A DNA stretch of 64,000 bases. Origin: Candidatus Pacearchaeota archaeon. GTDB lineage: Archaea; Nanobdellota; Nanobdellia; Pacearchaeales; GW2011-AR1. A program made the translations under genes and the position numbers. Shown here one piece after another: positions 15,135 through 60,466 of the stretch (positions are counted from its first letter, which is position 1; each line of letters starts with the position of its first letter). The notes beneath the pieces are model-generated. The model ran no database searches. It saw only the letters and a list, made by a program, of their open reading frames with translations, and was not told where the DNA came from. The stretch spans positions 502,097-566,096 of the forward strand of contig JAIFVX010000001.1 of NCBI GenBank assembly GCA_019659125.1. Direction: 5' to 3'.

Positions 15135-15518
15135 TTAATTGTCTAGGGATAGCGGATGAGTGAGATCAACGATATACTTTCCGTCTTCAAGCTGGTATAT
15201 TCTCGGCTTGTTCATGGCAAAAAGCTTTGGCAAGTCAAGCAGGTATGTGCCTGACTTGATGACTTTGACGCTTTCAAAGTCGAGGAATACAGGAGTATCT
15301 TCGTCTTTTATTCCGGCAATATCTCGTACATCCTCTTCAATCTGTTTCTTTTCTGCAGGATTAAGCATGGATACGAAGTCAGTATTCTTGGATATTTCCT
15401 TAAGCTTTTCCTCCTTGATATAGAAGAAGAATTTGCTTCTACATTCGGCACAGCCAGTTAAGACTTCCTGGCTTCCATCCTTGTAAACTGCAGAGCAATG
15501 AACGCATTTATAGGGCAT
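15135..15518 (-). CDS. Zn-ribbon protein (DUF2072-like, archaea-specific)
   Basis: MPYKCVHCSAVYKDGSQEVLTGCAECRSKFFFYI is a CxxC...CxxC ribbon at the N-terminus. It has its own TATA. It lies next to the GTPase/DUF2073-like pair, as I recall for this archaeal family. Confidence 0.6.
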   Translation of the reverse strand: MPYKCVHCSAVYKDGSQEVLTGCAECRSKFFFYIKEEKLKEISKNTDFVSMLNPAEKKQIEEDVRDIAGIKDEDTPVFLDFESVKVIKSGTYLLDLPKLFAMNKPRIYQLEDGKYIVDLTHPLSLDN

Positions 15519-15555: not shown

Positions 15556-15906
15556 TTATCTATTTCTTATCTTTCCGTAAATCCAACCGATGAGTGCACC
15601 AAAAATAAATCCAAGTATAAAATAAAAAACAAAATTTATAATACTTGAAAAGAAGATGAAGTTCGATTCTAGCCAAGCTGGCTGATTGCCATCCCAATCT
15701 ATGATGCCTAAAAAAAGTAGGGGCCCTACACTGATTAAAACCATCAAAAAGGTCAAAAGGTCAAAATTCTCCAATATATCTCCAATTAAAGATGATGGCC
15801 CTTCAATATCAGATACAAGAAATACATTAACAAAGGCTAAGAACCCAAAGAGAAAACCTAGGATTAAACCCAACTTCAACCAATATGACCAGTTTTTCCA
15901 ACCCAT
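15556..15906 (-). CDS. Small integral membrane protein (3-4 TM)
   Basis: Hydrophobic segments throughout. Own gatataaaagg box upstream. Confidence 0.55.
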   Translation of the reverse strand: MGWKNWSYWLKLGLILGFLFGFLAFVNVFLVSDIEGPSSLIGDILENFDLLTFLMVLISVGPLLFLGIIDWDGNQPAWLESNFIFFSSIINFVFYFILGFIFGALIGWIYGKIRNR

Positions 15907-15939: not shown

Positions 15940-16335
15940 TTAGTCAAAGAACAATTCTAGTTTTCTCGGATCGCGCTTTATCTCCTTGATGACTGAGGCA
16001 GGGCCTATGACGGTAAGAGCTGCGCTATCCCCTATCAGCCTCTTTGCGATACCATGTCGCATCTTGACGAAGATATTCTCACGCCTCATATCCGGTTCTA
16101 TGACTGCAAGCTCAATACCCTTGAAATTTTTAATATGGTCTACGAGTGCCATAGTGTCTTCAATCAGCCTCGCTTCCTCTTCAGCCCGCAATCTTCCATG
16201 AAGGATTACAATCTTATTGCTTAATACAAGATTCAAGATTTTCTTGACCCTTTCAGAGATGGTCATATCTTTTACTTCCGAGAATGGGAGCACCTGCAGG
16301 CTCAGCCCGTGTATTTTAGTATCTTTTTTACTCAT
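15940..16335 (-). CDS. DUF2073-like protein, partner of the upstream GTPase
   Basis: Its start overlaps the GTPase stop by 1 nt, giving translational coupling. The family call is from memory of the archaeal GTPase-DUF2073 pairing. Confidence 0.5.
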   Translation of the reverse strand: MSKKDTKIHGLSLQVLPFSEVKDMTISERVKKILNLVLSNKIVILHGRLRAEEEARLIEDTMALVDHIKNFKGIELAVIEPDMRRENIFVKMRHGIAKRLIGDSAALTVIGPASVIKEIKRDPRKLELFFD

Positions 16336-43922: not shown

Positions 43923-44570
43923 ATGCCCTTTAAGCTCTCGCCTTCAGCTCTTTCACTCATGGAAGAGTGTCCTCGTTGTTTCTGGCTTACGAAGCATAAA
44001 GAATGGAAGCGGCCTGAATCCATTTTCCCATCACTTCCCTCAGGCATGGATGGCATTCTAAAAGTTCATTTTGATAAGTTTAGAGATAAAAGGCTTTTAC
44101 CCCCAGAAATCAAGGATCACCATCATACAAAGGATCTCAAGCTCTTTGACAATGAGGAACTCCTTAAGATCTGGAGAAACAATCTTAGGGGAATAAGATG
44201 GGAAGATAAGGAAGGTAATGTATTGTTCGGAGCAGTCGATAATATTCTTGTAAATGGAAAGAAACTTATTGTCCTTGATTACAAGACACGGGGCTTTGCC
44301 CTCAAAGATGACACTGCAGACCATTATCAGAATCAGCTCGACATCTACAATTTTCTTCTCAAGAAGAACGGCTATGAAACTGAAGACTATGCCTTCCTCC
44401 TCTTTTACATTCCAAAACAAGTGATGGAAACCGGAGAATTTGTCTTCGAAACCGTTCTTGCCCGTAGAAAAGTAAACGTCAAGAACGCCGAAAGTCTGTA
44501 CAAGCAGGCCCTAAACATCCTGAAAGGCGCATGCCCCAAGGAAAGCTGTGATTGGTGTGAGAAAAGATGA
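43923..44570 (+). CDS. Cas4/RecB-like PD-(D/E)XK nuclease with a Cys cluster
   Basis: N-terminal CPRC. Catalytic GAVD...VLDYKT (D...D/E-x-K). QLDIYNFLL (QxxxY). C-terminal CPKESCDWC. Confidence 0.7.
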   Translation: MPFKLSPSALSLMEECPRCFWLTKHKEWKRPESIFPSLPSGMDGILKVHFDKFRDKRLLPPEIKDHHHTKDLKLFDNEELLKIWRNNLRGIRWEDKEGNVLFGAVDNILVNGKKLIVLDYKTRGFALKDDTADHYQNQLDIYNFLLKKNGYETEDYAFLLFYIPKQVMETGEFVFETVLARRKVNVKNAESLYKQALNILKGACPKESCDWCEKR

Positions 44571-44609: not shown

Positions 44610-45251
44610 ATGGAAGGACATTTAGATAACCCTCTTAAAGAGTTATTTTCTGATACACATTTAACTTCCAGAATTAAAAAGAAATTGCCAAAATTATTTC
44701 ATATTGCAGAACTAGAAAGTTCTAGAGCAGGAAAAGTTGGAATGGAAGTTGGTTCTGTTAGAGAAAAAGTTATAATTGCTCTTTTAATTTATCAATATGG
44801 AAAAGAAAATGTTAATACAAGTATCCCAATTACAGAAGCAGAAACCGATGTTATTGTCAAAGGAAGTCCCTATTCGATAAAAACAATTACAGGTAATGGA
44901 GGTGTTAAAGCTGTCTGGACAGTTGATGCTTCTAGTGCAGCTAACTTTATCAATAGTTATGCTCCAAAATGTAATATTCTTTTAATTCAGATAAATTGGG
45001 GATATACGAGAGGGGGATTTTCTCTTATACCATTAGAAGTTCAAAAGAAAGTTTTCAAGAAACTGGGAAAAGATAAATACCTTAAGCTCCCTAAAGCAGG
45101 AACTAACCCTCGTGGTGTAGAATTCACGAGAGAAGCAATAGATACAATGCTTGCTGATAAGGATACCTTGAAGGTAGACATAGATTGGAAGAAAGAGGTT
45201 TTTGAATATGATACGTATAAGAAATGGGTAGAATACTGGAAAGAAGATTAA
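44610..45251 (+). CDS. Candidate type II restriction endonuclease partnered with the convergent methyltransferase
   Basis: Convergent with the MTase gene, with a 4-nt overlap. Same strongly AT-rich composition. Possible PD-(D/E)XK-like E..TDVIVKGSPYSIKT. The family was not firmly recognised. Confidence 0.45.
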   Translation: MEGHLDNPLKELFSDTHLTSRIKKKLPKLFHIAELESSRAGKVGMEVGSVREKVIIALLIYQYGKENVNTSIPITEAETDVIVKGSPYSIKTITGNGGVKAVWTVDASSAANFINSYAPKCNILLIQINWGYTRGGFSLIPLEVQKKVFKKLGKDKYLKLPKAGTNPRGVEFTREAIDTMLADKDTLKVDIDWKKEVFEYDTYKKWVEYWKED

Positions 45252-46138
45252 CTCAATTTTACTTGTGAAATTTCTTCCTTAATTCTTTTCTCAGCTAACT
45301 TACAATAGTTTTCATCTATGTCATAACCAATATAGTTTCTTTTAGCCTTTATCGCTGCAATAGCGGTTTGTCCACTTCCCATAAAGGGATCCAAAACAAT
45401 ATCATCTTCAAATGAATAAAGTTCTATTAATCTTTTAGGTAATTCTTCAGGAAATGGTGCAGGATGACCGATTTTTCTTGCGGAGGTGGCAGAGAAAGTC
45501 CAAATACTTTTTGTAAAACTCATAAAATCTTTTTTCGTAATGGTATCTTTCTTTTTATCTTTATATCTTGAGTAATTATCCTTTGAAAAAATTAGAATGT
45601 ATTCATGAATATCTCTTAATGTTGGATTCTTGGCGCTTTGCCAGCTACCCCATGCGGTTGAAGTCCCAGCACTAGAAGACTTATCCCATATTATCTCACC
45701 TCGCATTAAAAATCCTAATTCTGACATTATTTGAATGATATGAGCATGGAGAGGGATATAGGGCTTCCTTCCTAAATTAGCTACATTTATACCAACTCTG
45801 CCACCAGTCACTAAAACTCTTTTTACTTCCTTGAAAACATTTCTTAAGAGATTTAAATATTCCTCTAAACTTAAATCTTTATCATACTCTTTTCCCACAT
45901 TATATGGTGGAGAAGTGATCATCAAATGAACTGAGTGGTCTGGCAACTCCTTCATAGTTTCACTTGATGCACAAAATATTCTATTTAATAATTCCTTAGA
46001 TATAATATTTTCTTTCTCAAATGAGTCTTGTTTATTGGCATTGAGGCCATTATACATTTTAGAATTGTAAAACTTTGAAGAATCATGGTTGATTCTTGCT
46101 GAAGTGCCGAATGAACTAGTTTGTGTGCCTTCCACCAT
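45248..46138 (-). CDS. Beta-class DNA methyltransferase (SPPY motif, probably N4-cytosine; N6-adenine not excluded); start at ATG 46138
   Basis: Motif IV ITSPPYNVGKEYD precedes motif I LDPFMGSGQTAIAA, which is the beta-class order. ATG 46138 lies 1 nt after the stop of the upstream Zn-ribbon ORF. The track's longer N-terminus overlaps that ORF. Confidence 0.85.
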   Translation of the reverse strand: MVEGTQTSSFGTSARINHDSSKFYNSKMYNGLNANKQDSFEKENIISKELLNRIFCASSETMKELPDHSVHLMITSPPYNVGKEYDKDLSLEEYLNLLRNVFKEVKRVLVTGGRVGINVANLGRKPYIPLHAHIIQIMSELGFLMRGEIIWDKSSSAGTSTAWGSWQSAKNPTLRDIHEYILIFSKDNYSRYKDKKKDTITKKDFMSFTKSIWTFSATSARKIGHPAPFPEELPKRLIELYSFEDDIVLDPFMGSGQTAIAAIKAKRNYIGYDIDENYCKLAEKRIKEEISQVKLS

Positions 46139-46139
46139 T

Positions 46140-46289
46140 TTATCTATTCCTCGCATGAATAATAGGTTTGTCCCAATAAGGAGACTTGCATTTAGGGCAT
46201 ACAATCGGTATATCTTCAGTTCTTGTTATCCACATATGATCACACCTTTCACACTCACATTCGTATACTCGAATCTCTTTTTTACCCAT
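46140..46289 (-). CDS. Unlisted 49-aa Zn-ribbon ORF immediately upstream of the methyltransferase
   Basis: Translates as MGKKEIRVYECECERCDHMWITRTEDIPIVCPKCKSPYWDKPIIHARNR (CxC..C...CPxC). A tatttaaag box lies about 27 nt upstream of its ATG. Confidence 0.55.
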   Translation of the reverse strand: MGKKEIRVYECECERCDHMWITRTEDIPIVCPKCKSPYWDKPIIHARNR

Positions 46290-47333: not shown

Positions 47334-47349
47334 ATAAGCTTTAAATACC
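47334..47349 (+). promoter_or_regulatory. Promoter of the ribosomal-protein superoperon
   Basis: gcTTTAAATAcc (TATA at 47340-47347) is identical to the consensus box seen at other genes. No further box occurs until after L15. Confidence 0.55.
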
Positions 47350-47369: not shown

Positions 47370-47472
47370 GAGTCTAGTTATTCGCTTGCTCTGATAAGGC
47401 ATGCGAAACATACCGTTGGTTCACACGGTAAAAAGGTCGAGTTGCGCCACATAACAATGGAAACACAACCAC
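47370..47472 (+). promoter_or_regulatory. Unusually long (~100 nt) 5' leader of the r-protein operon, containing a hairpin
   Basis: The TATA box is about 125 nt from the rpl3 ATG, against 22-28 nt elsewhere. A 6-bp stem TACCGT/ACGGTA with an 8-nt loop sits at 47411-47430. Confidence 0.4.
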
Positions 47473-48426
47473 ATGGCAAAGTTATCAAGACCGAGAAGCG
47501 GAACATTACAGTTCTGGCCCCGAAAAAGGGCTGAAAAACCCCTTCATAGAGTGAACTGGGAGAATTTTGATAACCACAAATCTGACACTGAGGGAGTTCT
47601 TGGATTCATTACCTACAAAGTGGGCATGGCATCTGCTCTTGTAAAGGATGAGACAGCAAACTCCATGACAAAAGGGAAGCGAATGGTTGTTCCTGTTACT
47701 ATCCTTGAAGCTCCTAACATGAAGATTTTCTCTATAAGGTTCTACAAGAACACCCTTCCAATAAAAGATGTTGTTGTTTCCCATGATAAGGAACTGAAGA
47801 AAGTCTTGAGAGTCCCTAAGGCCCTGAAGCCACTTGATTCTATGATTCCAAAAGAATACGATGATATCCATCTTATTGCATATTCTCTTCCCTCTCAAAC
47901 GACAGTAAAAAAAGTGCCTGATGTGATCGAGCTTGCCATCCATGCAAAGGACAAGCTTGCATTCGCTAAATCCCTTATCGGCAAGGAAATAGCCTTGAAG
48001 GATTTCCTGAACAAGCATGATCTGCTTGATGTGCGTGGATTGACGAGAGGAAAAGGTCTTGTCGGCCCTGTCAAGCGATTTGGAATCACATTGAAGGCTC
48101 ATAAATCTGAAAAAGGAGTCCGTCGACCTGGATCTCTTTCCCCCTGGCATCCTGCCCGAGTCACTTTCCACACTCCTCATGCTGGACAGCTCGGAATGTT
48201 CTCTCGTATTCACTATAATTTCAAAGTCATCACCTCAAATTCTATTGCTCAGAAAAATATCAATCCTGGAACAGGATTCAAGCACTATGGAAACATCAAG
48301 GGCAATTACATTGTTATCCTTGGCAGCGTCCAGGGTCCGGTCAAGCGACAAGTGCTCCTTACACCTTCATTCAGGCCTACCAAATTGCAGGCTAAGAAGA
48401 AATTCGAATTCATGGAGTTAGTATGA
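47473..48426 (+). CDS. rpl3: 50S ribosomal protein uL3
   Basis: MAKLSRPRSGTLQFWPRKRA.. and ..GKGLVGPVKRFG.. are typical of archaeal L3. Confidence 0.95.
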   Translation: MAKLSRPRSGTLQFWPRKRAEKPLHRVNWENFDNHKSDTEGVLGFITYKVGMASALVKDETANSMTKGKRMVVPVTILEAPNMKIFSIRFYKNTLPIKDVVVSHDKELKKVLRVPKALKPLDSMIPKEYDDIHLIAYSLPSQTTVKKVPDVIELAIHAKDKLAFAKSLIGKEIALKDFLNKHDLLDVRGLTRGKGLVGPVKRFGITLKAHKSEKGVRRPGSLSPWHPARVTFHTPHAGQLGMFSRIHYNFKVITSNSIAQKNINPGTGFKHYGNIKGNYIVILGSVQGPVKRQVLLTPSFRPTKLQAKKKFEFMELV

Positions 48427-48722
48427 GAGAGCTAAACCTAAAGATGCCAGAGTCTAAAGAAGAAGAAAGATTGCTTAATAACGGAGACCTAGTCCTTGTG
48501 GATAAGCGTTTTGCTGTAAAGTTTCGCGATTTAGAACGTGGTGCAGAGTATATAACACCTAATTCCCTGAGAGATAATATAGTTTTATCATATATCTCAG
48601 GACCAAATGTACAATTTCACCTACGTTTTGGAATTATGGATGCTGATTTTACGAAGTGTTATAGGGGAAATGAAGGCTATGAAGAGAGAAAAAATGCCTT
48701 GGAGAGGGCAAAATTACTATGA
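48423..48722 (+). CDS. Orphan ORF A (99 aa) filling the L3|L4 junction
   Basis: ATGA overlaps at both ends (with the rpl3 stop and the rpl4 start). GGAG lies 8 nt upstream. About 37% GC against about 43% in flanking rpl4 (hand count). No family recognised. Confidence 0.65.
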   Translation: MRELNLKMPESKEEERLLNNGDLVLVDKRFAVKFRDLERGAEYITPNSLRDNIVLSYISGPNVQFHLRFGIMDADFTKCYRGNEGYEERKNALERAKLL

Positions 48723-49501
48723 AATTAAAAGCAACAGTCTACGATGCAGCAGGGAATAAGAAAGGGGAGTTGGAACTTCCTGCATTCTTTGCTAACCCTA
48801 TTCGAGAGGATATTGCCGCAAAGTCATTTGAAGTTTGGAAATTGATGAACCAACATCTCTACTCTGGATATGTTGAGGCAGGAAAGAGACATTCTGCTTC
48901 TGGTACTATCAGCCACCAAAGACATGACTGGAAAGGGCATTATGGTAAAGGAATTTCGAGAGTTCCGAGAAAGACCATGAATCGACGTGGAACTCAATTC
49001 TTCTGGATTGCAACTGAAGTATCAGGAACTCGAGGTGGAAGACGATCACATACTCCTCGAGGTTTGCGCTCGCCGAGGAAAATGAATGAGAAGGAAATGA
49101 GACTTGGATTCCAATCAGCACTTGCAGCCACTTCACAGACAAAGTATGTGGAAAAGAGATATTCTTCCCTTCATGACATAAAGCATGCACTTCCTATAGT
49201 GGTTGAATCTATGCCTGCAAAATCAAAGGATGTCCTTTCAGTCCTGAAGAAAATCCTTGGCTCATTGCATGAACTTGCCTTACGGCAGAAATCTGTCCGA
49301 CCAGGAAAAGGAAAGCTTCGAGGGAGAAAATACAAGTCATCTGCAGGCCTTCTTCTTGTCAGAGGCAATGATGAGAAGATAAGCATGAAAGGGCTTGACA
49401 TAAAGTCAGCCAGGGAAGTATCCATTGCAGACTTATACCCTCTCGGAAGACTTACTATATTCACTCATAAAGGGATGGAGGAACTTGCTCATGTTGCTTA
49501 G
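48719..49501 (+). CDS. rpl4: 50S ribosomal protein uL4
   Basis: ..HYGKGISRVPRKTM..RGGRRSHTP.. together with its operon position. Confidence 0.95.
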   Translation: MKLKATVYDAAGNKKGELELPAFFANPIREDIAAKSFEVWKLMNQHLYSGYVEAGKRHSASGTISHQRHDWKGHYGKGISRVPRKTMNRRGTQFFWIATEVSGTRGGRRSHTPRGLRSPRKMNEKEMRLGFQSALAATSQTKYVEKRYSSLHDIKHALPIVVESMPAKSKDVLSVLKKILGSLHELALRQKSVRPGKGKLRGRKYKSSAGLLLVRGNDEKISMKGLDIKSAREVSIADLYPLGRLTIFTHKGMEELAHVA

Positions 49502-49733
49502 ACCTGTAACGTCAGAAAAAGCAGTAAAATTGATTGATGTAGATAACACCTTATTGTTTGAGACCGAGAGACGAGCAGACAAGACCCTAATCAAGAAAGA
49601 AGTTGAATCTGTCTTTGCAGTCAAGGTATTATCTGTTCGTACATTGATACGGAACAACAAGAAATTCGCATTCGTTAAGCTTAAGAAGGAGAACCCGGCA
49701 ATTGATATAGCTACTAAGCTGGGAATGATATAA
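49491..49733 (+). CDS. rpl23: 50S ribosomal protein uL23 (start at ATG 49491)
   Basis: MLLRPVTSEKAVKLID...FAVKVLSVRTL. Confidence 0.9.
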   Translation: MLLRPVTSEKAVKLIDVDNTLLFETERRADKTLIKKEVESVFAVKVLSVRTLIRNNKKFAFVKLKKENPAIDIATKLGMI

Positions 49734-50047
49734 TGATGCCAAGTAAATCATCTTTAAGGGAATTAGATTTTAAGGAGTTGGAAGTGGGAAGGATTTATAC
49801 TTTATTGGGAAATGTAGATGTGGATAAAGCAATGTATATAGGAAAATATAGAGAAGACCGCCATAATTTCCTTGTTAGAATTAAGAGTGATGGAAATCTA
49901 AAGATGTACCAAGGAATTGAATCTAAGATGGATGTCGCTGGAGACAAAGTATTATCACATAGCTTTGTACCTTGGAATCAAACAGTAAGAGGAGCAGCAT
50001 ATCGTCAGGCAAGAGATGTTTTAATGGAAAAGGTAGGTCTACAATAA
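49733..50047 (+). CDS. Orphan ORF B (104 aa) filling the L23|L2 junction
   Basis: Its ATG shares 1 nt with the rpl23 TAA (TAATG). Its stop is 1 nt before the rpl2 ATG. About 35% GC (hand count). No family recognised. Confidence 0.65.
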   Translation: MMPSKSSLRELDFKELEVGRIYTLLGNVDVDKAMYIGKYREDRHNFLVRIKSDGNLKMYQGIESKMDVAGDKVLSHSFVPWNQTVRGAAYRQARDVLMEKVGLQ

Positions 50048-50048
50048 A

Positions 50049-50747
50049 ATGGGTAAGAGAATTATATCACAGGCACGAGGACACGGAAGTTTAAGTTACC
50101 GAGTACGAAGAGCAGCATTCATGCACAAGATCAAGTATCCGATGCATGACGGAGAGGCAGAGATAGTCAGTCTTATCCATTCAGCTGGTCACACTGCTCC
50201 TTTGATGAGAGTGCAGATAGGAAATGAGGCATTCATCAACCCTGCATTCAAAGGGGCTATTGTAGGACAGAAATTGATGATCAATGCGCAGGAAGCAAAA
50301 GATGGAAACATCATGATGCTCAAGAATGTCCCTTCAGGAACACATATCTACAATATTGAGAACAATCCTGGAGATGGAGGAAAAATGATCCGAGTTGGCG
50401 GTTCCTCTGCTACAGTTGCAAAGAAGCATGAGCACAACAAAGTGTCTGTACTGATGCCAAGCAAGAAAGAGATCATCTTATCCGGAGACTGTAGAGTCAC
50501 TGTAGGAGTGATTGCAGGAGAGGGAAGGACTATGAAACCATTCATCACTGCAGGAAGAAAGTTCTGGAAGATGAAGACGAGGAACAAGCTATGGCCTCGA
50601 ACATCTGCTGTCAAGATGAACGCTATCGATCATCCATTTGGTTCTGGAAGAGGAAAGAGAATCAAGTCTAAGATCGCTAAGAGAAACGCTCCTCCAGGAA
50701 GCAGAGTAGGACATATTCGACCAAGTAGAACCGGGAGGCGCAAGTAA
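50049..50747 (+). CDS. rpl2: 50S ribosomal protein uL2
   Basis: ..GHTAPLMRV.., ..NAIDHPFGSGRGK... Confidence 0.95.
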   Translation: MGKRIISQARGHGSLSYRVRRAAFMHKIKYPMHDGEAEIVSLIHSAGHTAPLMRVQIGNEAFINPAFKGAIVGQKLMINAQEAKDGNIMMLKNVPSGTHIYNIENNPGDGGKMIRVGGSSATVAKKHEHNKVSVLMPSKKEIILSGDCRVTVGVIAGEGRTMKPFITAGRKFWKMKTRNKLWPRTSAVKMNAIDHPFGSGRGKRIKSKIAKRNAPPGSRVGHIRPSRTGRRK

Positions 50748-50748
50748 T

Positions 50749-51111
50749 ATGTTCGGAAAGAATAGACTCTATGTGTTAGATCATCCTTCTGAGGGTAAAT
50801 GGCCTGCAGTGTTTATTGGAGAAAAACTTAATGAAGTAGAGCGTGCTGCTTTTGGACCGGAAAAATATCACTCATTTGCCTACTTGCAGTATAATCGACA
50901 CGGCCCACGAGATTATAGATTAAGTCGAGCATTTGTTAAAGATGGCAATTTCACTAAAAACGGCAGGAATGTTAAAATAAAGAATCGCTGTGATGTCTTT
51001 TATACTAGTGGTGAACGAGAATATAGTAAGATGTCATTCACAGAATATTGGTCAGCTCGTTCAATGCTTGTTTTACAGCACTGGGCAAGGCAAATGGGGG
51101 TTTTAGCATAA
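50749..51111 (+). CDS. Orphan ORF C (120 aa, basic) filling the L2|S19 junction
   Basis: There is a 1-nt spacer on each side. GGGAGG lies about 12 nt upstream. No family recognised. By eye it is related to ORF B. Confidence 0.65.
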   Translation: MFGKNRLYVLDHPSEGKWPAVFIGEKLNEVERAAFGPEKYHSFAYLQYNRHGPRDYRLSRAFVKDGNFTKNGRNVKIKNRCDVFYTSGEREYSKMSFTEYWSARSMLVLQHWARQMGVLA

Positions 51112-51112
51112 A

Positions 51113-51511
51113 ATGGCAGAAGTAGAGCGAATGAAGGAAGCGCTGATCCGAGGAAAGACCTTAGAGTACCTGAAGTCATTAGATGTGCGGGAATCTGCAA
51201 AGTACCTTCCAGCACGAAGCAGAAGGTCTGTGCTGAGACACTTCGAGGTCGTTGAAGAGTTCATCAAGCGATGCGAGAAATACAAGGCAAAGAACAAGAA
51301 GATAAAGACTCATTTAAGGGATATTGTCATTGTCCCTAAGCTTGTTGGATTCGCTATTGGAGTGTACAATGGAAAGCAGTTCACTGACGTCATCATCACA
51401 TCACAAATGATCGGTCACAGATTGGGAGAATTCTCCCCATCAACCTTCGCTGTCAAGCACAGCGCTGCAGGAATCGGTGCAACGAAGAGCTCGAGGGCTC
51501 AGAAGAAGTAA
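51113..51511 (+). CDS. rps19: 30S ribosomal protein uS19
   Basis: ..VYNGKQFTDVIITSQMIGHRLGEFSPS... Confidence 0.95.
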   Translation: MAEVERMKEALIRGKTLEYLKSLDVRESAKYLPARSRRSVLRHFEVVEEFIKRCEKYKAKNKKIKTHLRDIVIVPKLVGFAIGVYNGKQFTDVIITSQMIGHRLGEFSPSTFAVKHSAAGIGATKSSRAQKK

Positions 51512-51514
51512 ACC

Positions 51515-52111
51515 ATGGAACGAACAAATACAGTCCAATCACATGTCAAGAAGGATCATAAGCCGGAGACAAAGCCAGCAGTGCATGAGCACAAGCATGA
51601 AGAGAAGAAGGAAGATCACGATCATGCGCATGACCATTCGCATCCACACGATCACACACACGATCACAAGACAGAGGCAAAGAAAGAAGAGCCAAAAGTT
51701 GTCCCTAAAGTCTCCAAGAAGGAATTTGCCATCACACATGGATTATCTCTTCATGCATCAAAGAAACACTGCATGTACATCTCTTCATTCATCAAGGGAA
51801 AGACCATTGATGCAGCAATCCATGATCTTAAGCAGGTTATCAAGATGAAGCGCGCAGTCCCATTCAAAGGCGAGATCCCTCATAGAAAAGGAAAGGGAAT
51901 GATGTCAGGAAGATATCCAGTCAATGCTTCCAAGTTGTTCATTACACTCTTGAAGGGACTGAAAGGAAATGTCCTTGTCAATGGAATGGATCTTGATAAG
52001 ACAAAGATAGTCATATCAAACCCAAGCTGGGCTTCACGTCCTCAGCGTCGTGGTGGAGTCCGAGGAAAGCGGACCAACGTACTTATAAAGGCTCAGGAGA
52101 TGAAATCATAA
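51515..52111 (+). CDS. rpl22: 50S ribosomal protein uL22 with a ~60-aa His/Lys/Glu-rich N-terminal extension
   Basis: Canonical part ..ASKKHCMYISSFIKGKTIDAAIHDLKQVIKMKRAVPF...GRYPVNASK... The extension contains HEHKHEEKKEDHDHAHDHSHPHDHTHDH. Confidence 0.9.
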   Translation: MERTNTVQSHVKKDHKPETKPAVHEHKHEEKKEDHDHAHDHSHPHDHTHDHKTEAKKEEPKVVPKVSKKEFAITHGLSLHASKKHCMYISSFIKGKTIDAAIHDLKQVIKMKRAVPFKGEIPHRKGKGMMSGRYPVNASKLFITLLKGLKGNVLVNGMDLDKTKIVISNPSWASRPQRRGGVRGKRTNVLIKAQEMKS

Positions 52112-52782
52112 TGGAAGAGAAAAAATTCGTTGCATTCAAGAAAGAAGAGCTCGGAGTTAAGGAGTACATCAAGCGAGAGCTTGGAAAAGGAAGAATCAGT
52201 GCGGTTAGTATCGAATACACTCCAGTTGGAGAGAAAATCATTATCGCAACAAGCAAGCCAGGTCTTGTCATTGGAAGGAGAGGAGAGAAGATTGACGAGC
52301 TTACGCGAGTATTGAAGAAGAGATTCAAGCTTGACAACCCTCATATCGAGATCAGGGAGATCATGGAGCCTTTGTTAGATGCTCAGCTTGTCGCTGATGA
52401 GATAGCATTATTGCTTGAAAGAAAAGGATCGCTGAAGTTCAAAGTCATTGCATACAAGATGTTGCAAGAGATCATGAAAGTCGGAGCCATGGGTGCTGAA
52501 ATAGTCTTGGCAGGAAAATTACCTTCAGAGAGAGCCAGAAGCTGGCGATTTGCTCAAGGATACCTAAAGAAAACAGGAGACCCGGCAAAAGTAGTTGATC
52601 GAGCAATGTCACAGGCAATCACGCTTCCAGGAGTTGTAGGCATATCAGTCAGCATCCTTCCACCGAATGCTCATATCCATGACAGAATTGTTGTCGATGA
52701 TGCAATGAGAAGCAGGATAAAACTTGCTTCAGTAGATAAAGAAATTCCTATTATAGTTAAGAAGAAGGGAGGCAGGAAGTAA
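52111..52782 (+). CDS. rps3: 30S ribosomal protein uS3
   Basis: KH domain ..IIATSKPGLVIGRRGEKIDEL.. and ..LAGKLPSERARSWRF... Confidence 0.95.
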   Translation: MEEKKFVAFKKEELGVKEYIKRELGKGRISAVSIEYTPVGEKIIIATSKPGLVIGRRGEKIDELTRVLKKRFKLDNPHIEIREIMEPLLDAQLVADEIALLLERKGSLKFKVIAYKMLQEIMKVGAMGAEIVLAGKLPSERARSWRFAQGYLKKTGDPAKVVDRAMSQAITLPGVVGISVSILPPNAHIHDRIVVDDAMRSRIKLASVDKEIPIIVKKKGGRK

Positions 52783-52979
52783 TGGCAATCTTAAAGATAA
52801 AGGATGCTGTAAAACTTTCCCGCGATGAGCGAATGGCTCGATTAAAGGATCTTAAGATGGAACTCATAAAGTCAATGGTCGGTGCAAATAAGAGCAATGC
52901 AAAGACTAAGGAAATCAAGCGAGCAATTGCCCGGATTTCAACACTCAATAGTAAGCGAGAGGAGGGCACAAAGAAATAA
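52782..52979 (+). CDS. rpl29: 50S ribosomal protein uL29
   Basis: A 65-aa helical protein, ..LSRDERMARLKDLKMELIK.., in the canonical operon position. Confidence 0.9.
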   Translation: MAILKIKDAVKLSRDERMARLKDLKMELIKSMVGANKSNAKTKEIKRAIARISTLNSKREEGTKK

Positions 52980-53278
52980 TGGACATCGATCCTAGATTTG
53001 GCCTTCCCAACGAGGAAGATGTTTTGGAAGAAATCGCGAAAGGCGACCAGAAGATCACGGTATCAACCGTTTCACGACGATACGGGAAGATAACTACCCT
53101 TGTTTCAGGGCTTGATAAGAGCCTCGACATAAAGTCAATAGCAAAACAGCTTAAGGAAGAGCTTGCATGCGGGGGCACGGTCAAGGACGGTATCATCGAA
53201 CTCCAAGGAAATCACAAGAAAAATGTCAAGGCAGTCCTTGTAAAGCTTGGATTCCCGGAGGATTCAATTTCAGATTAA
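52979..53278 (+). CDS. Translation initiation factor aIF1/SUI1
   Basis: ..ITVSTVSRRYGKITTLVSGLD...LKEELACGGTVKDGIIELQGNH... Confidence 0.9.
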   Translation: MDIDPRFGLPNEEDVLEEIAKGDQKITVSTVSRRYGKITTLVSGLDKSLDIKSIAKQLKEELACGGTVKDGIIELQGNHKKNVKAVLVKLGFPEDSISD

Positions 53279-53279
53279 C

Positions 53280-53615
53280 ATGGCAACAAAGAAACAGCAG
53301 CATAAACAACCAGAGAAGAAACACGAGCACAAGATCATGAAAGTCGGAGCCCGAGGCAGAGTGTTCGAGGGATTTGTAACCAAGAAATTCGCAACTCGTG
53401 TCGTCATTGAATTCGAAAGGACTGTCTATGTGCAGAAATACAAGAGTTTCTATAAGAAGAAGACGCGGATTCATGCGCACCTTCCTCAAGGAATGGACAT
53501 TAATGTTGGAGATTATATCCAAGTGCGTGAATGCCGGCCCTTGAGCAAGATAATCCATTTCATCGTTATCAAGAAAGTAAGAAGTCCTCAGCATACCAAG
53601 GAGGTAAAGGCATGA
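53280..53615 (+). CDS. rps17: 30S ribosomal protein uS17 (start at ATG 53280)
   Basis: ..GRVFEGFVTKKFATRVVIEF...GDYIQVRECRPLSK... Confidence 0.9.
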   Translation: MATKKQQHKQPEKKHEHKIMKVGARGRVFEGFVTKKFATRVVIEFERTVYVQKYKSFYKKKTRIHAHLPQGMDINVGDYIQVRECRPLSKIIHFIVIKKVRSPQHTKEVKA

Positions 53616-54013
53616 AAGCAATTACTGCTCGAGCCACACGAGGATTAAACATCGGAAGCTATGTAGTTGCAGCAGATAACTCTGGTGCACGAATTGTCAA
53701 GATAGTCAGCGTCGTCCATGGAAAGACCAAGAAAGGAAGGCAGCAGTATGCTAAGATGGCTGACTGGGTGAAAGTCTCTGTGAGAGCAGGAAAGCCAGAC
53801 ATGAAGGGACAAGTCTTTGATGCAGTCGTTATACGCCAGAGAAAGCCCTACCGAAGAAATACGGGGGAGAGGGTATGTTTCGAAGACAATGCAGTTGCAT
53901 TACTGAAAGATGAGAAGGGAAATCCAAAAGGAACACAGATTAAAGGTCCAGTCTCACGTGAAGTTCATGAGCGATGGGCTCAAGTTGCGAAGATTGCGGA
54001 GGCAGTACTATGA
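53612..54013 (+). CDS. rpl14: 50S ribosomal protein uL14 (start at ATG 53612)
   Basis: MKAITARATRGLNIGSYVVAADNSGAR... ATGA overlap with rps17. Confidence 0.95.
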   Translation: MKAITARATRGLNIGSYVVAADNSGARIVKIVSVVHGKTKKGRQQYAKMADWVKVSVRAGKPDMKGQVFDAVVIRQRKPYRRNTGERVCFEDNAVALLKDEKGNPKGTQIKGPVSREVHERWAQVAKIAEAVL

Positions 54014-54447
54014 AGTCAGAATTTTCAACGGCATGGATATCAAGCAAGCAGGTAAGGAAGCAGAGAAAATACAGGCACAATGCTCCATTACATGTCAGGC
54101 ATAAGTTTTTAAGCGCTCATCTGTCAAAGGCTTTGCGGCAAAAGTATGGCAAGAGGAGTCTTCCCCTCAGGAAAGGGGATGAGGTGCTTGTCATGCGCGG
54201 CAGCTTCGTGACGAAGAAAGCAAAAGTCGCTTCTGTCAATACCAAGAAGTCACGAATCGCCCTTGAGGGCATCCAACGATCAAAGAAAGATGGCACCAAG
54301 GTGAACGTCTATTTTGATCCAAGCGTCCTTCTTATTGAATCACTTGTGCTTGACGACAAGAACAGGATACGGGAAAAGAAAGAGGAGAAAAAGCAGGATA
54401 AGAAACCGGAGAAAGCAAAACATGCATCAGACAAGACAAGAAACTAG
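54010..54447 (+). CDS. rpl24: 50S ribosomal protein uL24 (start at ATG 54010)
   Basis: KOW motif ..LPLRKGDEVLVMRGSFVTKKAKV... ATGA overlap with rpl14. Confidence 0.9.
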   Translation: MKSEFSTAWISSKQVRKQRKYRHNAPLHVRHKFLSAHLSKALRQKYGKRSLPLRKGDEVLVMRGSFVTKKAKVASVNTKKSRIALEGIQRSKKDGTKVNVYFDPSVLLIESLVLDDKNRIREKKEEKKQDKKPEKAKHASDKTRN

Positions 54448-55039
54448 TACGAAATTGCCCATCCCGAGAAAGGGCACAAAATATGTAGCACGAGCTATCG
54501 AGAGCGTTCAGAATTCAGTGCCGGTAGTTATTGCAGTCAGGGACATGCTTAAGCTTGCACAGACTGCAAAAGAAGTCCGAGAGATGATCAAGGAGAAATT
54601 GTTAAAGATCAACGGAAGAACAGTCTATGATTACAGAGAAAGCATCAAGCTTTTCCATATCCTTGAGGCAGGAAAACTTCACCAGCTTATTCTTCTTCCT
54701 ACAGGGAAATTTGCATTTGAAGATACAAAGTCCCATGAGAGGCTCTGCAAGGTTGTCGGAAAGAAGCTTGTCAATGGCGGAAAGATACAAATTCACTTGC
54801 ATGATGGATCTACCTTAATCTCTCCAGGGAATGTAGAGGTAGGGGATTCATTGTATCTTGATTTCTCAGGGAAAGTGAAGAAGCATGTCTCTCTTGAGAA
54901 AGGCAAGCAGGCATTCGTATTCTCAGGAAAATATAAGGGAATGAAAGGAAAGATTGAAAGGGTAAAGGATCACATGGTCACGATAAAATTCGATCACGCT
55001 TCTGCAGACTTGGAGCAGGACAGGATGGCAGTACTATGA
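54422..55039 (+). CDS. rps4e: 30S ribosomal protein eS4 (start at ATG 54422)
   Basis: ..LPIPRKGTKYVARA.. and a C-terminal KOW-like ..VFSGKYKGMKGKIERV... Confidence 0.9.
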   Translation: MHQTRQETSTKLPIPRKGTKYVARAIESVQNSVPVVIAVRDMLKLAQTAKEVREMIKEKLLKINGRTVYDYRESIKLFHILEAGKLHQLILLPTGKFAFEDTKSHERLCKVVGKKLVNGGKIQIHLHDGSTLISPGNVEVGDSLYLDFSGKVKKHVSLEKGKQAFVFSGKYKGMKGKIERVKDHMVTIKFDHASADLEQDRMAVL

Positions 55040-55329
55040 TTAAAAGAGATGTAAGCAAGTATTTGGAGTTCTTTGGAAACACAGTAGACTTAATCTATAA
55101 GTTTAACGAAGCTGGAGATAGTGCGTATGCTACAGATCTACCAGAAAAATCAGGGATAGCTCTATTGCATTACCGAAACGCTGCTCGAGTAGGAAATGAT
55201 TTTCTCAACAGGGATCTACCAGCACACTATGCGTCGATGATAGAATATATCCAGCACGAAGTAGACACGCTTGTATCAAAGATAGCCCAGATTAATAAAA
55301 TACCATTCCCGGTAGGAGCTGAACTATGA
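55036..55329 (+). CDS. Orphan ORF D (97 aa, acidic, helical) filling the S4e|L5 junction
   Basis: ATGA overlaps at both ends. No family recognised. Confidence 0.6.
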   Translation: MIKRDVSKYLEFFGNTVDLIYKFNEAGDSAYATDLPEKSGIALLHYRNAARVGNDFLNRDLPAHYASMIEYIQHEVDTLVSKIAQINKIPFPVGAEL

Positions 55330-55856
55330 ACGCGAAAATGGAAATGAAAGAGAAGAAAGACAATAGCATGAGAGATATATTTATTGAGAAATTAGTTTTA
55401 AGCGTTGGAGGAACCGAGGATAGCTTGAAGCGAGGTAAAAGATTGCTTGAAGTCATTTCAGGCATGAAGCCTCAGATTCTTGTCTCGGACAAGAGAATCC
55501 CTGACTTTGAAGTCAATCCTGGTCTTGAAGTTGGAGCTCGAGTTACTATCCGGGGAGAGAAAGCATTGGAGTTGCTTCGAAGATTATTGGGAGCAGTTGA
55601 CAATCAGATCAAGATAAAACAGATCTCTGAAAATCATTTCTCATTCGGCATCAAGGAATATATTGAAATCCCTGGAATGGAATATCATAGAGATATAGGT
55701 ATCCGAGGCTTTAATGTGACTGTTGTGTTTGCCCGTCCTGGATTGCGGGTGAAGAGAAAAAAGATAAAGCAAGGTTCAATCCCGAAGAGACAGCATATCT
55801 CTCAAGATACGATCAAACAATTCATGGAGGCGCAGTTTAAGACTGAATTCACATGA
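55326..55856 (+). CDS. rpl5: 50S ribosomal protein uL5
   Basis: ..IEKLVLSVGGTED...DFEVNPGLEVGARVTIRG... Confidence 0.95.
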   Translation: MNAKMEMKEKKDNSMRDIFIEKLVLSVGGTEDSLKRGKRLLEVISGMKPQILVSDKRIPDFEVNPGLEVGARVTIRGEKALELLRRLLGAVDNQIKIKQISENHFSFGIKEYIEIPGMEYHRDIGIRGFNVTVVFARPGLRVKRKKIKQGSIPKRQHISQDTIKQFMEAQFKTEFT

Positions 55857-56083
55857 CAGCAAGCGACTGGAACAAGATATTGAAGCAGCTTCGAAGAAAG
55901 CCGGCAGTGATGCAGAAATTCATCAAGCATAACAAGCCGAAGGAAAGAAAGTTCGGAATTGCAGCAAAGAAATGCGAGCGATGTGGACGGTTTGGTGCGC
56001 ATCTCAAGCAGTATAATCTTAATCTCTGCAGGCAATGCTTCAGAGAGATCGCGGAGGAGATCGGATTCCATAAGTACAGCTAA
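55853..56083 (+). CDS. rps14: 30S ribosomal protein uS14 (Zn type)
   Basis: ..KCERCGRFGAHLKQYNLNLCRQCFREIAEEIGFHKY. Confidence 0.9.
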   Translation: MTASDWNKILKQLRRKPAVMQKFIKHNKPKERKFGIAAKKCERCGRFGAHLKQYNLNLCRQCFREIAEEIGFHKYS

Positions 56084-59892: not shown

Positions 59893-59922
59893 CTTTAAAA
59901 AGGGATATCTATTGATTTTCCT

Positions 59923-60426
59923 ATGACATCAGTCGAGAGAGGTGGAATGACAAGAACCTCTCAAAGAAAAGTGTCTGGTCCTTATTCCATCACGAGCGTT
60001 ATTGAAGCATTGAATTCATACAAAAGTGCACCTGCCTCATCACGAGATATAGATGCCCTTTCGCTTCTTATCAAGTTGTCGGAGCGGCGTAACAATATTG
60101 ATGATGTCCTCCTTTATTCCGCGCATCGTGCAGCAGCGCTTGCATCTATGGCAACCTCTCCCCTTCCCGCTCGAGCCAGAAAAGAATATTTCAACGCAGC
60201 ACTTGAGAACTACTTCGATCTTGCAGTCACCGTGGAAACGCTAGCCGATATGTTATCTGAAAAGCCCACGTATTACAGGGACTTTGCAGTGCTCTGCTAT
60301 GAGAAGATGCTTCGTCTTCAGGACCAGACATTAGAATACAGGGGAAGAAATATTACTGAAAAATCACTTGATCGCCTAAGGTCTGCAGGCAAACGAACAT
60401 TTGCCAGAAAAACTGCGGCCGCATAG
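59923..60426 (+). CDS. Orphan ORF E (167 aa, helical) between L15 and SecY, with its own promoter
   Basis: gcTTTAAAAAggg lies about 25 nt upstream of the ATG. No family recognised. Confidence 0.55.
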   Translation: MTSVERGGMTRTSQRKVSGPYSITSVIEALNSYKSAPASSRDIDALSLLIKLSERRNNIDDVLLYSAHRAAALASMATSPLPARARKEYFNAALENYFDLAVTVETLADMLSEKPTYYRDFAVLCYEKMLRLQDQTLEYRGRNITEKSLDRLRSAGKRTFARKTAAA

Positions 60427-60466
60427 CTTCAACAATCTTTAAAAACTCGTTTTCTGTACAAGATAA

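Follow-up and report, generated by a model that had tools for sequence, protein, structure and literature searches.

The window (the whole stretch of 64,000 nucleotides analysed here, from a Candidatus Pacearchaeota archaeon) carries a ribosomal protein operon in which short ORFs, denoted A to D, stand at four gene junctions (Table 1). The preliminary description of this DNA reported the four ORFs at these junctions, and they are present with the lengths and on the strand given for them. A fifth insert, E, lies just beyond the range considered there (48423-55329).

Table 1. Ribosomal protein genes, insert ORFs and sequence signals at the locus (positions in the window)
Feature	Positions	Strand	Context	Remark
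TATA-like box CTTTAAATA	47339..47347	+	upstream of L3	putative operon promoter
uL3 gene	47473..48426	+	stop overlaps A start	Pfam
Insert ORF A, 99 aa	48423..48722	+	L3/L4 junction	probable distant SF1 member
SD-like GGAGAGGG	48701..48708	+	in A 3' end	11-18 nt ahead of L4 start
uL4 gene	48719..49501	+	start overlaps A stop	Pfam
uL23 gene	49491..49733	+	stop overlaps B start	Pfam; start uncertain, open frame from 49425
Insert ORF B, 104 aa	49733..50047	+	L23/L2 junction	ORFan; possible relative is the L30/L15 insert of L001
SD-like AGGTAGGT	50031..50038	+	in B 3' end	ahead of L2 start
uL2 gene	50049..50747	+	flanked by B and C	Pfam
Insert ORF C, 120 aa	50749..51111	+	L2/S19 junction	strict ORFan
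G-run GGGGG	51096..51100	+	in C 3' end	ahead of S19 start
uS19 gene	51113..51511	+	begins 1 nt past C stop	Pfam
eS4 gene	54422..55039	+	stop overlaps D start	Pfam; open frame from 54314
Insert ORF D, 97 aa	55036..55329	+	S4e/L5 junction	sole insert with a positional counterpart (L001)
SD-like GGAG	55315..55318	+	in D 3' end	11 nt ahead of L5 start
uL5 gene	55326..55856	+	start overlaps D stop	
Insert ORF E, 167 aa	59923..60426	+	between L15 and SecY	fifth insert, lineage-specific; no Pfam match

Every boundary of A to D agrees with the tight spacing that had been described: ATGA overlaps join L3 to A, A to L4, S4e to D and D to L5; a TAATG overlap joins L23 to B; and 1-nt spacers separate B from L2, L2 from C and C from S19. 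In mononucleotide shuffles, none of the four inserts has a probability above 5.5e-4 of yielding a stop-free frame, so chance open frames can be excluded for A to D. The insert ORFs exhibit GC1 > GC2 > GC3 periodicity. They are indeed AT-richer than the flanking genes, with a GC content of 34.9-39.5%, whereas the ribosomal protein genes average 43.7%, and with a GC3 of 0.26-0.34 against 0.45 +/- 0.06. Since GC3 is also higher in 43 other genes of the window (0.43 +/- 0.08), the AT-richness of the inserts holds relative to the genome background as well.

TATA-like boxes of the form CTTTAAA(T/A)A are found only at 47339, 59893 and 60437; the last two read CTTTAAAAA, and E thus has a TATA-like box of its own. 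The box at 47339 (before L3) is the sole one before 59893, from which we infer that it is the operon promoter. Inside the span from L3 to L15 no TATA-like boxes were found, in agreement with the earlier statement that the inserts lack promoter boxes, and this span contains a single T5 run, at 54106. The SD-like motifs noted earlier occur on both sides of the inserts. Taken together, the exact overlaps, the lack of internal boxes and the SD-like motifs argue well for the proposed co-transcription and translational coupling of A to D with the ribosomal protein genes.

The preliminary description recognised no family for the four ORFs, and the searches gave the same answer: no family in Pfam, NCBIfam or PHROG matches A, B, C or D. 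A phmmer search with A as the query recovered nothing but A itself from 1.84 billion representatives, and word-indexed searches with B, C and D likewise recovered nothing but the query sequences from 5.8 billion clusters; no relatives of C were found in metagenome contigs, and no PDB sequence match fell below E = 0.3. Among 150 inserts including A to E, the toxin, antitoxin and defence profiles of PADLOC yielded only RT, DEDDh and homing-endonuclease (HEase) matches, each type in 2-7 members, all of them from relatives; A, the sole window member itemised, had none. The candidacy of A to D as toxin-antitoxin or known defence genes was rejected, as they lack a profile match and are single ORFs, not two-gene modules.

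The preliminary description considered that the ORFs could be new ribosomal proteins. There is a precedent: former unknown ORFs of archaeal spc operons, eS4, eL32 and eL19, were later shown to be ribosomal proteins, and they too are small, tightly coupled and encoded on the same strand of the same operon. Those proteins, however, are strongly basic and conserved throughout Archaea, each at a fixed position, whereas A to D are absent from the nearest relative or about 40% identical there, and are partly acidic. The pI values are 6.6 for A, 9.2 for B, 9.75 for C and 5.5 for D, against 9.7-11.7 among the ribosomal proteins; the earlier remark that only C is basic has to be corrected to include B. 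Neither A, B nor C is detectable in 160 related loci, and D is found only in the closest genome, L001. We rejected the new core ribosomal protein on these grounds, together with the lack of a Pfam or NCBIfam match to any ribosomal protein family and the fast evolution of D.

In L001, the L2 protein is 96% identical to that of the window and the DNA of the ribosomal protein genes is 72-86% identical. The comparison of junctions proposed in the preliminary description gave a divided result: D has a positional counterpart in L001, but the sites of A, B, C and also E are intact, empty junctions there. L001 has inserts of its own at L14/L24 and L30/L15. The former is a weaker paralogue of D; to the latter B shows 36% identity over 47 aa in a pairwise BLASTP comparison (E = 1e-6), which the profile test did not confirm. 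The counterpart of D (15265-15555 in L001) is 41% identical over 91 aligned columns, while the neighbouring ribosomal proteins are 79-96% identical. The dN/dS measurement that had been suggested gave dN of 0.62 for D, compared with 0.03-0.14 for the ribosomal protein genes, and omega of about 0.4, with third codon positions near random (38%); judged by this omega, D is constrained at the protein level, if weakly. When 29 further pairs of close genomes were compared (L2 identity 85-97%), the occupancy differed at 0-6 junctions, and the inserts at shared sites were often just 33-41% identical, or their similarity was undetectable.

The survey of the clade covered 160 Pacearchaeota/Woesearchaeota loci with 2119 junctions of the ribosomal protein operon, 243 of which have gaps of 150-700 nt. 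An open frame spanning at least 90% of the gap is present on the plus strand in 92% of these gaps, on the minus strand in 7% and in shuffles in 1%. Separate same-strand insert ORFs number 230 (median 102 aa), and 64 of the 87 well-covered loci have from one to seven. On either side, their boundaries peak at -4, -1 and +1 nt; an SD-like motif lies in the 3' end of the insert for 73% of the downstream ribosomal protein genes, compared with 13% at random positions; and their GC3 is lower than that of the flanks by 0.08 (p = 4e-26). Recognisable mobile-element or enzyme genes among the inserts of relatives are few (LAGLIDADG+HTH, RT, DEDDh exonuclease, GNAT). The earlier suggestion of a selfish or regulatory family colonising the junctions stands in part: the colonisation is clade-wide, several insert families occur at two or more types of junction, and A probably belongs to one of them, but A to D are not a single family and most inserts (136 of 230, about 59%) are singletons.

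The family in question, SF1, was defined in this analysis and has the N-terminal motif L..L..GD.V.V. Its profile, run against 12,830 sequences of which 4,600 are decoys, converges on 40 unique sequences from eight junction types with zero decoy matches. A was recruited by hmmsearch in iteration 2 (E = 0.0026, no decoys); hhalign gives it a probability of 62% (E = 7e-5) over 25 columns, at the N-terminal motif only, compared with 27% for B and below 1% for each of C, D and E. Six other SF1 members (L016, L039, L098, L116, L132 and L134) also reside at L3/L4. We conclude that A is probably a distant member of SF1, with moderate support. The C-terminal motif common to A and SF1 may in part reflect a nucleotide-level constraint on the SD-like motif.

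Comparison of the loci shows A to D to be dispensable and fast-evolving, and to belong to a large, mostly unrelated pool of ORFs gained and lost at many junctions in Pacearchaeota and Woesearchaeota. We believe, with a probability of about 0.6, that they are promoterless, translationally coupled accessory or selfish cassettes, lineage-specific and with high turnover, and not structural components of the ribosome. They would be transcribed from the operon promoter and translated by termination-reinitiation coupling. Each insert would use for itself the SD-like motif that lies within the upstream ribosomal protein gene, and at its 3' end its own SD-like motif and the overlapping or adjacent stop would pass the ribosome on to the essential gene that follows. 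Selection would purge every variant that breaks the coupling, which may explain the absence of inserts that are not ORF-exact. The most likely route for gain, loss and replacement of alleles is recombination via the highly conserved genes on either side; a repeat search over 47400-56000 found no terminal repeats or recombination sites flanking the inserts.

A less probable account, though the strongest of the alternatives, is that the inserts, notably SF1, are strain-variable accessory proteins which bind the ribosome, rRNA or ribosomal protein mRNA, tuning or protecting translation; their location would then reflect their function and a need for co-regulation with ribosome synthesis. All 45 SF1 matches lie within the span of the ribosomal protein operon, although the 2.24 Mb that were searched lie beyond it for 36% of their length, and the SF1 subfamilies are old and bound to particular junctions. 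This confinement in the sampled DNA, together with the age of the subfamilies, is as compatible with a function linked to translation as with selfishness. The basic character of B and C agrees with such a role, and so does the resemblance of the SF1 'GD.V.V' to small beta-barrel (SH3/KOW-like) motifs frequent in ribosomal proteins; chloroplast L19 is the weakest PDB match listed, and the SF1 profile drifted into L32e via a short motif. The hhalign probability for SF1 and L32e is only 11%, however, and the inserts match no ribosomal protein or translation-factor family. Their occurrence is patchy even among genomes with a 96% identical L2, they fall into many unrelated families and singletons, and their pI has a median of 6.2 in SF1 and 6.6 overall, with 36% of all inserts acidic.

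It is tempting to think of free-standing homing endonuclease genes, such as the seg and mob genes that stand between conserved genes of T4-like phages. By intronless homing, the encoded protein would cut the empty junction of an insert-less genome, and repair from the conserved flanks would copy the insert; SF1, on this view, would be degenerate, a LAGLIDADG-like enzyme with a single domain. The likeness is evident: small optional ORFs stand exactly between highly conserved genes, their presence at these sites varies among close relatives, and they plausibly spread via the conserved flanks. A bona fide LAGLIDADG_3+HTH_7 ORF occupies L2/S19 in one relative, and two inserts match the PADLOC HEase model. 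I-DmoI accounts for all nine of the best PDB matches of the SF1 profile, which cover 74 profile positions, and the motif L..L..GD fits the I-DmoI sequence 'LLGLIIGD'. The single-sequence AF2 model of A is too poor to use (pLDDT 41.9); its order of helices and strands is compatible with the alpha-beta-beta-alpha-beta-beta-alpha LAGLIDADG fold. The I-DmoI match is not significant, however (E = 0.34), and the lead fell through: hhalign gives 3.7% for SF1 and I-DmoI and 0.2% for SF1 and the LAGLIDADG protein of locus L043, none of the 40 SF1 members matches LAGLIDADG Pfam models even at E <= 10, and the SF1 alignment shows the acidic residue of 'GD' to be imperfectly conserved. The ORFs are of about 100 aa, compared with 200-300 aa, A to D and SF1 have no detectable nuclease motif or domain, and no similarity of B, C or D to any nuclease was found; the host here is an essential cellular operon and not a phage genome. 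We consider homing improbable for A to D.

Slightly less probable still is the proposal that the inserts are translated bridges, that is, foreign or junk DNA in which the open frame, and not the protein, is kept so that ribosomes reach the following essential cistron. The universal ORF-exactness with the SD hand-over would be expected of such spacers, and their extreme divergence, ORFan status and AT drift would also fit; B and C, being without homologues, give no sign of selection on their protein sequences. The constraint on D described above speaks against it, as do the protein motifs that SF1, SF2 and other families retain across distant genomes. Moreover, the empty junctions of relatives are functional, so one would expect a mere spacer to be lost by deletion. 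Finally, the view that the ORFs are non-coding spacers open by chance, or assembly artefacts, is effectively refuted already: A, B and C have no homologues and the structure models are of low confidence (pLDDT 42 for C), but the shuffle probabilities, the same-strand ORFs filling the gaps in independent assemblies, the codon-position GC pattern and the conserved homologue of D all contradict it.

The promoterless cassettes that we favour can be set beside two further known systems. Phage morons and small accessory ORFs are likewise diverse, mostly ORFan, AT-richer extras at gene boundaries, which leave their neighbours undisturbed and turn over rapidly. Morons carry their own promoter and terminator, whereas A to D have neither a TATA-like box nor a T5 run within or beside them and would be expressed by translational coupling; among the inserts A to E, a TATA-like box of its own is present only for E. 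Integron cassettes resemble the inserts in being promoterless, single-ORF and uniformly oriented, in depending on an upstream promoter and in forming a very diverse pool of mostly unknown function. They differ in that no attC-like or other repeats flank A to D (47400-56000) and no integrase was found nearby among the window ORFs examined; integron cassettes are also stacked at one attI site, whereas the junction inserts are dispersed among numerous junctions in an essential operon. On the comparison of these loci, A to D are examples of a widespread, fast-changing set of small genes at the junctions of an otherwise ultra-conserved operon.

The small ORFs A, B, C and D, inserted at the L3|L4, L23|L2, L2|S19 and S4e|L5 junctions, are found in the ORF listing exactly where the preliminary description placed them, and Pfam identifies their neighbours as uL3, uL4, uL23, uL2, uS19 and eS4. 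The order downstream is L22-S3-L29-SUI1-S17-L14-L24-S4e-[D]-L5-S14-S8-L6-L32e-L19e-L18-S5-L30-L15-[E]-SecY, where E is a fifth insert. The boundaries are also as described: ATGA overlaps at L3/A, A/L4, S4e/D and D/L5, a TAATG overlap at L23/B, and 1-nt spacers at B/L2, L2/C and C/S19. The TATA-like motif CTTTAAA(T/A)A is present at 47339, ahead of L3, and at 59893 and 60437; no copy was found anywhere within L3..L15, in agreement with the claim that promoter boxes are lacking there. Position 54106 has the operon's sole T5 run.

Positions of the features discussed, counted within the window
Feature	Positions	Strand	Length	Remarks
ORF A	48423-48722	+	99 aa	ORF listing
ORF B	49733-50047	+	104 aa	ORF listing; NCBI tag KW805_03310
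ORF C	50749-51111	+	120 aa	ORF listing; NCBI tag KW805_03320
ORF D	55036-55329	+	97 aa	ORF listing; NCBI tag KW805_03370
ORF E	59923-60426	+	167 aa	L15|SecY; no Pfam match; absent from L001
TATA-like boxes by E	59893-59901 and 60437-60445	+		before E / before SecY
PD-(D/E)XK nuclease	43923-44570			upstream of L3
ThaI-type restriction endonuclease	44610-45251			upstream of L3
N6/N4 DNA methylase	45248-46204	-		upstream of L3
OapC	15135-15518	-		origin-associated protein gene
OapB	15940-16335	-		origin-associated protein gene

The inserts are indeed AT-richer than the ribosomal-protein genes (r-genes), by GC content (34.9-39.5% vs a mean of 43.7%) and by GC3 (0.26-0.34 vs 0.45); as their GC3 is also below that of 43 other window genes (0.43), the effect is real against the genome background too. 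The statement that only C is basic has to be corrected, B being basic as well (pI 9.2). Mononucleotide shuffling of each of A-D yields a stop-free frame in 0.055% of trials at most; this, together with the clade-wide filling of gaps considered below, excludes chance ORFs.

Relatives were collected by an L2-anchored scan with one genome per species, which gave 80 loci, all from Pacearchaeota, Woesearchaeota and 'Nanoarchaeota' MAGs. In the nearest locus, L001, L2 is 96% identical and the r-gene DNA 72-86% identical, and the alignment with the window is interrupted precisely where the inserts lie. The L3|L4 junction of L001 is GGAGTTAGT-ATGA-AGCTAAAAGC; in the window this ATGA is followed by A and a second ATGA. 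The sites of B, C and E show the same empty-junction pattern in L001, which has inserts of its own at L14|L24 (two ORFs) and L30|L15, both empty in the window. The sole site filled in both is S4e|L5, where D and its counterpart share about 40-41% protein identity and no DNA-level similarity. For D, dN is 0.62 and omega about 0.4 with a saturated dS of about 1.5, against dN of 0.03-0.14 and omega of 0.02-0.07 for thirteen r-genes near it. With A-C absent from L001 and D diverged, the inserts are not conserved components; the proposal that they are new ribosomal proteins is thus not supported, in the spirit of the refutation test put forward with it, and annotation of ORFs of this type as r-proteins should be avoided.

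A second scan brought in a further 80 loci, from metagenomes. The 23 r-genes were mapped in the resulting 160 loci and the window, and 2119 distinct junctions were assessed, 243 of which have gaps of 150-700 nt. A stop-free frame over at least 90% of the gap is present on the + strand in 92% of the 243 (7% on the - strand, 1% in shuffles), and an N-terminal extension of the downstream gene was found in one gap only. The separate insert ORFs (n = 230) have a median length of 102 aa and start with ATG in 89% of cases. Insert starts are most often placed -4 (92 cases), +1 (67) or -1 (26) nt from the upstream stop, and the starts of the following genes +1 (88), -4 (79) or -1 (15) nt from the stop of the insert. 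From one to seven inserts are present in 64 of the 87 well-covered loci (74%), most often at L14|L24, L23|L2, L3|L4, L2|S19 and S17|L14; L29|SUI1, SUI1|S17 and L32e|L19e are never occupied among the loci assessed. Compared with the flanks, GC3 of the inserts is reduced by 0.082, and in 84% of cases it is the lower of the two (Wilcoxon p = 4e-26); the median pI is 6.6, and only 27% of inserts have a pI above 9. In 29 pairs of close genomes, with L2 85-97% identical, occupancy differs at 0-6 junctions, and the similarity of inserts at shared sites ranges from undetectable through 33-41% to 63-92% identity.

An SD-like (Shine-Dalgarno) tetramer lies 5-18 nt before 58% of insert starts, i.e., within the upstream r-gene, which is the same as at empty junctions (56% of r-genes); it precedes 73% of r-gene starts after inserts, i.e., it is within the 3' end of the insert, compared with 13% at random in-gene positions. 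The G content of the inserts peaks 9-15 nt ahead of the stop, and A-D also conform to this hand-over pattern. The 3' ends of B and C with the next start codons (50023-50052 and 51087-51116) are 70% identical over 30 nt (…GG.AGGT.T…ATAAAATGG), which could reflect convergence on an SD-stop-start hand-over module or be a trace of shared origin. Depletion of T-runs, a sign of anti-termination selection, is not seen in the inserts (121 observed vs 80 expected).

As the preliminary description supposed, no family is recognised for A-D: Pfam, NCBIfam and PHROGs give no significant match, the sole PHROG match being a weak one for C (phrog_30226, 1.9e-4, function not assigned there). Phage origin is rejected: besides this weak match, tblastn of A-D found nothing in 50,697 phage records. 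There is no PDB sequence match for A-D, and the AF2 single-sequence models of A and C are unusable (pLDDT 41.9 and 42.2). With A as query, phmmer run in full over 1.84 billion representatives retrieved nothing besides A. The word-indexed searches of 5.8 billion clusters likewise retrieved no sequence other than the queries B, C and D; these latter negatives are weak, since the same tool missed the 40% relative of D. No relative of C was found among the metagenome contigs searched. When every ORF in the 160 loci was searched by jackhmmer, D alone of the four had homologues, both in L001 (S4e|L5 and L14|L24). Pairwise BLAST suggests a resemblance of B to the L30|L15 insert of L001; nevertheless, B was rejected from that family, as a profile of the other three members misses it and hhalign gives 9.9%. 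Scans of the whole 64-kb window for tRNA genes and for Rfam families at the gathering threshold were negative. No repeats or att sites flanking the inserts were found.

The further suggestion, of a family colonising junctions, stands in part. The filling of junctions is clade-wide and several families sit at different junctions; however, A-D are not a single family (the four are not significantly similar to one another by pairwise BLASTP or hhalign), and the 230 inserts fall into 158 phmmer clusters, 136 of them singletons. Few of the 150 inserts compared with Pfam, PADLOC and PHROGs were recognised. These include a DEDDh/RNase T exonuclease of about 200 aa at L4|L23 (7 inserts: L014, L016, L060, L063, L067, L072, L078), 2-3 reverse transcriptases (RT), one GNAT, one B3_4 domain and DUF5680. 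RT-containing inserts of 1.9-2.3 kb lie at L24|S4e (L014:11087-13192; L016:9427-10953), and a 313-aa LAGLIDADG_3+HTH_7 ORF at L2|S19 of L043 (3333-4271); mobile-element genes are thus recognisable inside the operon of relatives. At L30|L15 at least 21 loci (L006, L009, L018-L020, L023, L024 and others) carry a conserved Zn-ribbon protein of 60-80 aa with the pattern W-E-C-x-C-G…P-E-E-C-x-x-C and an acidic tail (e.g., L006:15143-15367). It is absent from the window and L001 and could be a genuine clade-specific translation-linked protein.

Two related families, F2 and F3 (hhalign 90%), seeded an iterative search of 8.2k non-r-protein ORFs with 4,600 shuffled decoys. R-proteins were left out because an unrestricted search had drifted into L32e via a 24-residue motif; we take this match as profile drift and reject an eL32 paralogue (hhalign 11%). 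The family obtained, SF1, converges at 40 unique sequences (45 hits) and zero decoys, and occupies L3|L4, L23|L2, L2|S19, S19|L22, L22|S3, S17|L14, L6|L32e and S14|S8. A joins at iteration 2 (E = 0.0026); against SF1 without A, hhalign gives 62% (E = 7e-5), over the N-terminal 'L..L..GD.V.V' motif only. A pair of SF1 genes is present in some genomes, arranged in tandem within a single junction (L078:9282-9999) or at separate junctions; further cases are L081:5795-7448, L116, L054, L088 and L016. Such paired copies are always highly diverged. Divergence within a genome equals that between genomes, and the closest kin of SF1 copies are same-junction members elsewhere; hence the spread among junctions is old. 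Another family, SF2, counts 9 members, found at L2|S19, L23|L2 and L22|S3.

Of the 2.24 Mb searched, 36% is outside the operon span, yet all 45 SF1 hits fall within it. It is chiefly for this reason that we consider it possible that the inserts are ribosome-linked accessory factors; their patchy presence, acidic composition and many diverse families speak against it. Bridge ORFs, kept open for translation hand-over without selection on their proteins, may account for B and C, but the constraint on D and the protein motifs kept within families disagree with such an explanation. The idea of homing endonucleases has a true precedent in the LAGLIDADG ORF of L043, but for SF1 it is improbable, as the I-DmoI PDB-profile lead is not significant (E = 0.34) and was not borne out by hhalign or Pfam.

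The inserts are ORF-exact and on the same strand, with SD-like motifs on both sides and no promoter-like boxes in the operon, and their presence changes and their sequences diverge fast. We presume that they are transcribed from the L3 promoter and translated via termination-reinitiation coupling. Selection would filter every insert that breaks the coupling, and gain, loss and replacement would proceed via recombination through the conserved flanks. The boldest reading, to which we assign a probability of about 0.4, is that Pacearchaeota and Woesearchaeota possess undescribed promoterless ORF-exact cassettes, specific to the coupled junctions of the r-protein superoperon and carrying the SD of the gene that follows; one old family or more (SF1, to which A would belong) would be operon-restricted and span at least 8 junction types. 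Such cassettes would be either a novel type of selfish element exploiting the coupling or hidden variable ribosome-linked factors in DPANN.

Integron cassettes, phage morons and free-standing homing endonuclease genes come closest as analogues; the defining features looked for in A-D were not found for any of the three. We rate A-D as belonging with promoterless accessory or selfish cassettes, an already known kind. Singly they are ordinary "hypothetical proteins"; together they illustrate a clade-wide way, apparently undescribed, to insert and express variable small genes in the r-protein operon. A full-text literature search turned up no account of inserts like these in the r-protein operons of DPANN, which is not proof of novelty.

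Some observations concern the neighbourhood. The TATA-like box CTTTAAAAA, which lies before SecY in L001, occurs twice in the window (before E and before SecY), so E seems to have been inserted along with a promoter copy. uL22 has a His/Asp-rich N-terminal extension (51515-51700, + strand; …HEHKHEEKKEDHDHAHDHSHPHDHTHDHK…), which may be metal-binding or low-complexity; the length of the S19|L22 region varies among relatives. The region 5' of L3 (41800-47300) is unlike that of L001; the nuclease, ThaI-type endonuclease and methylase form a small restriction-modification/defence islet abutting the operon. A 116-aa unannotated ORFan (15556-15906) between OapC and OapB may be a further junction-type insert, and the replication origin may be close by.

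The S10-spc string serves textbooks as the example of a frozen gene order and phylogenomic marker sets as their backbone, and we know of no operon more conserved. That it is a hotspot of gain, loss and replacement of small ORFans in a large archaeal clade changes this picture; operon-synteny-based binning and marker extraction in DPANN must tolerate inserts. The junction inserts offer a natural system for the expression of new genes in ultra-compact genomes by plugging into translational coupling, for selection on insert boundaries via the SD hand-over, and for the question of whether variable accessory proteins accompany ribosome synthesis in DPANN.
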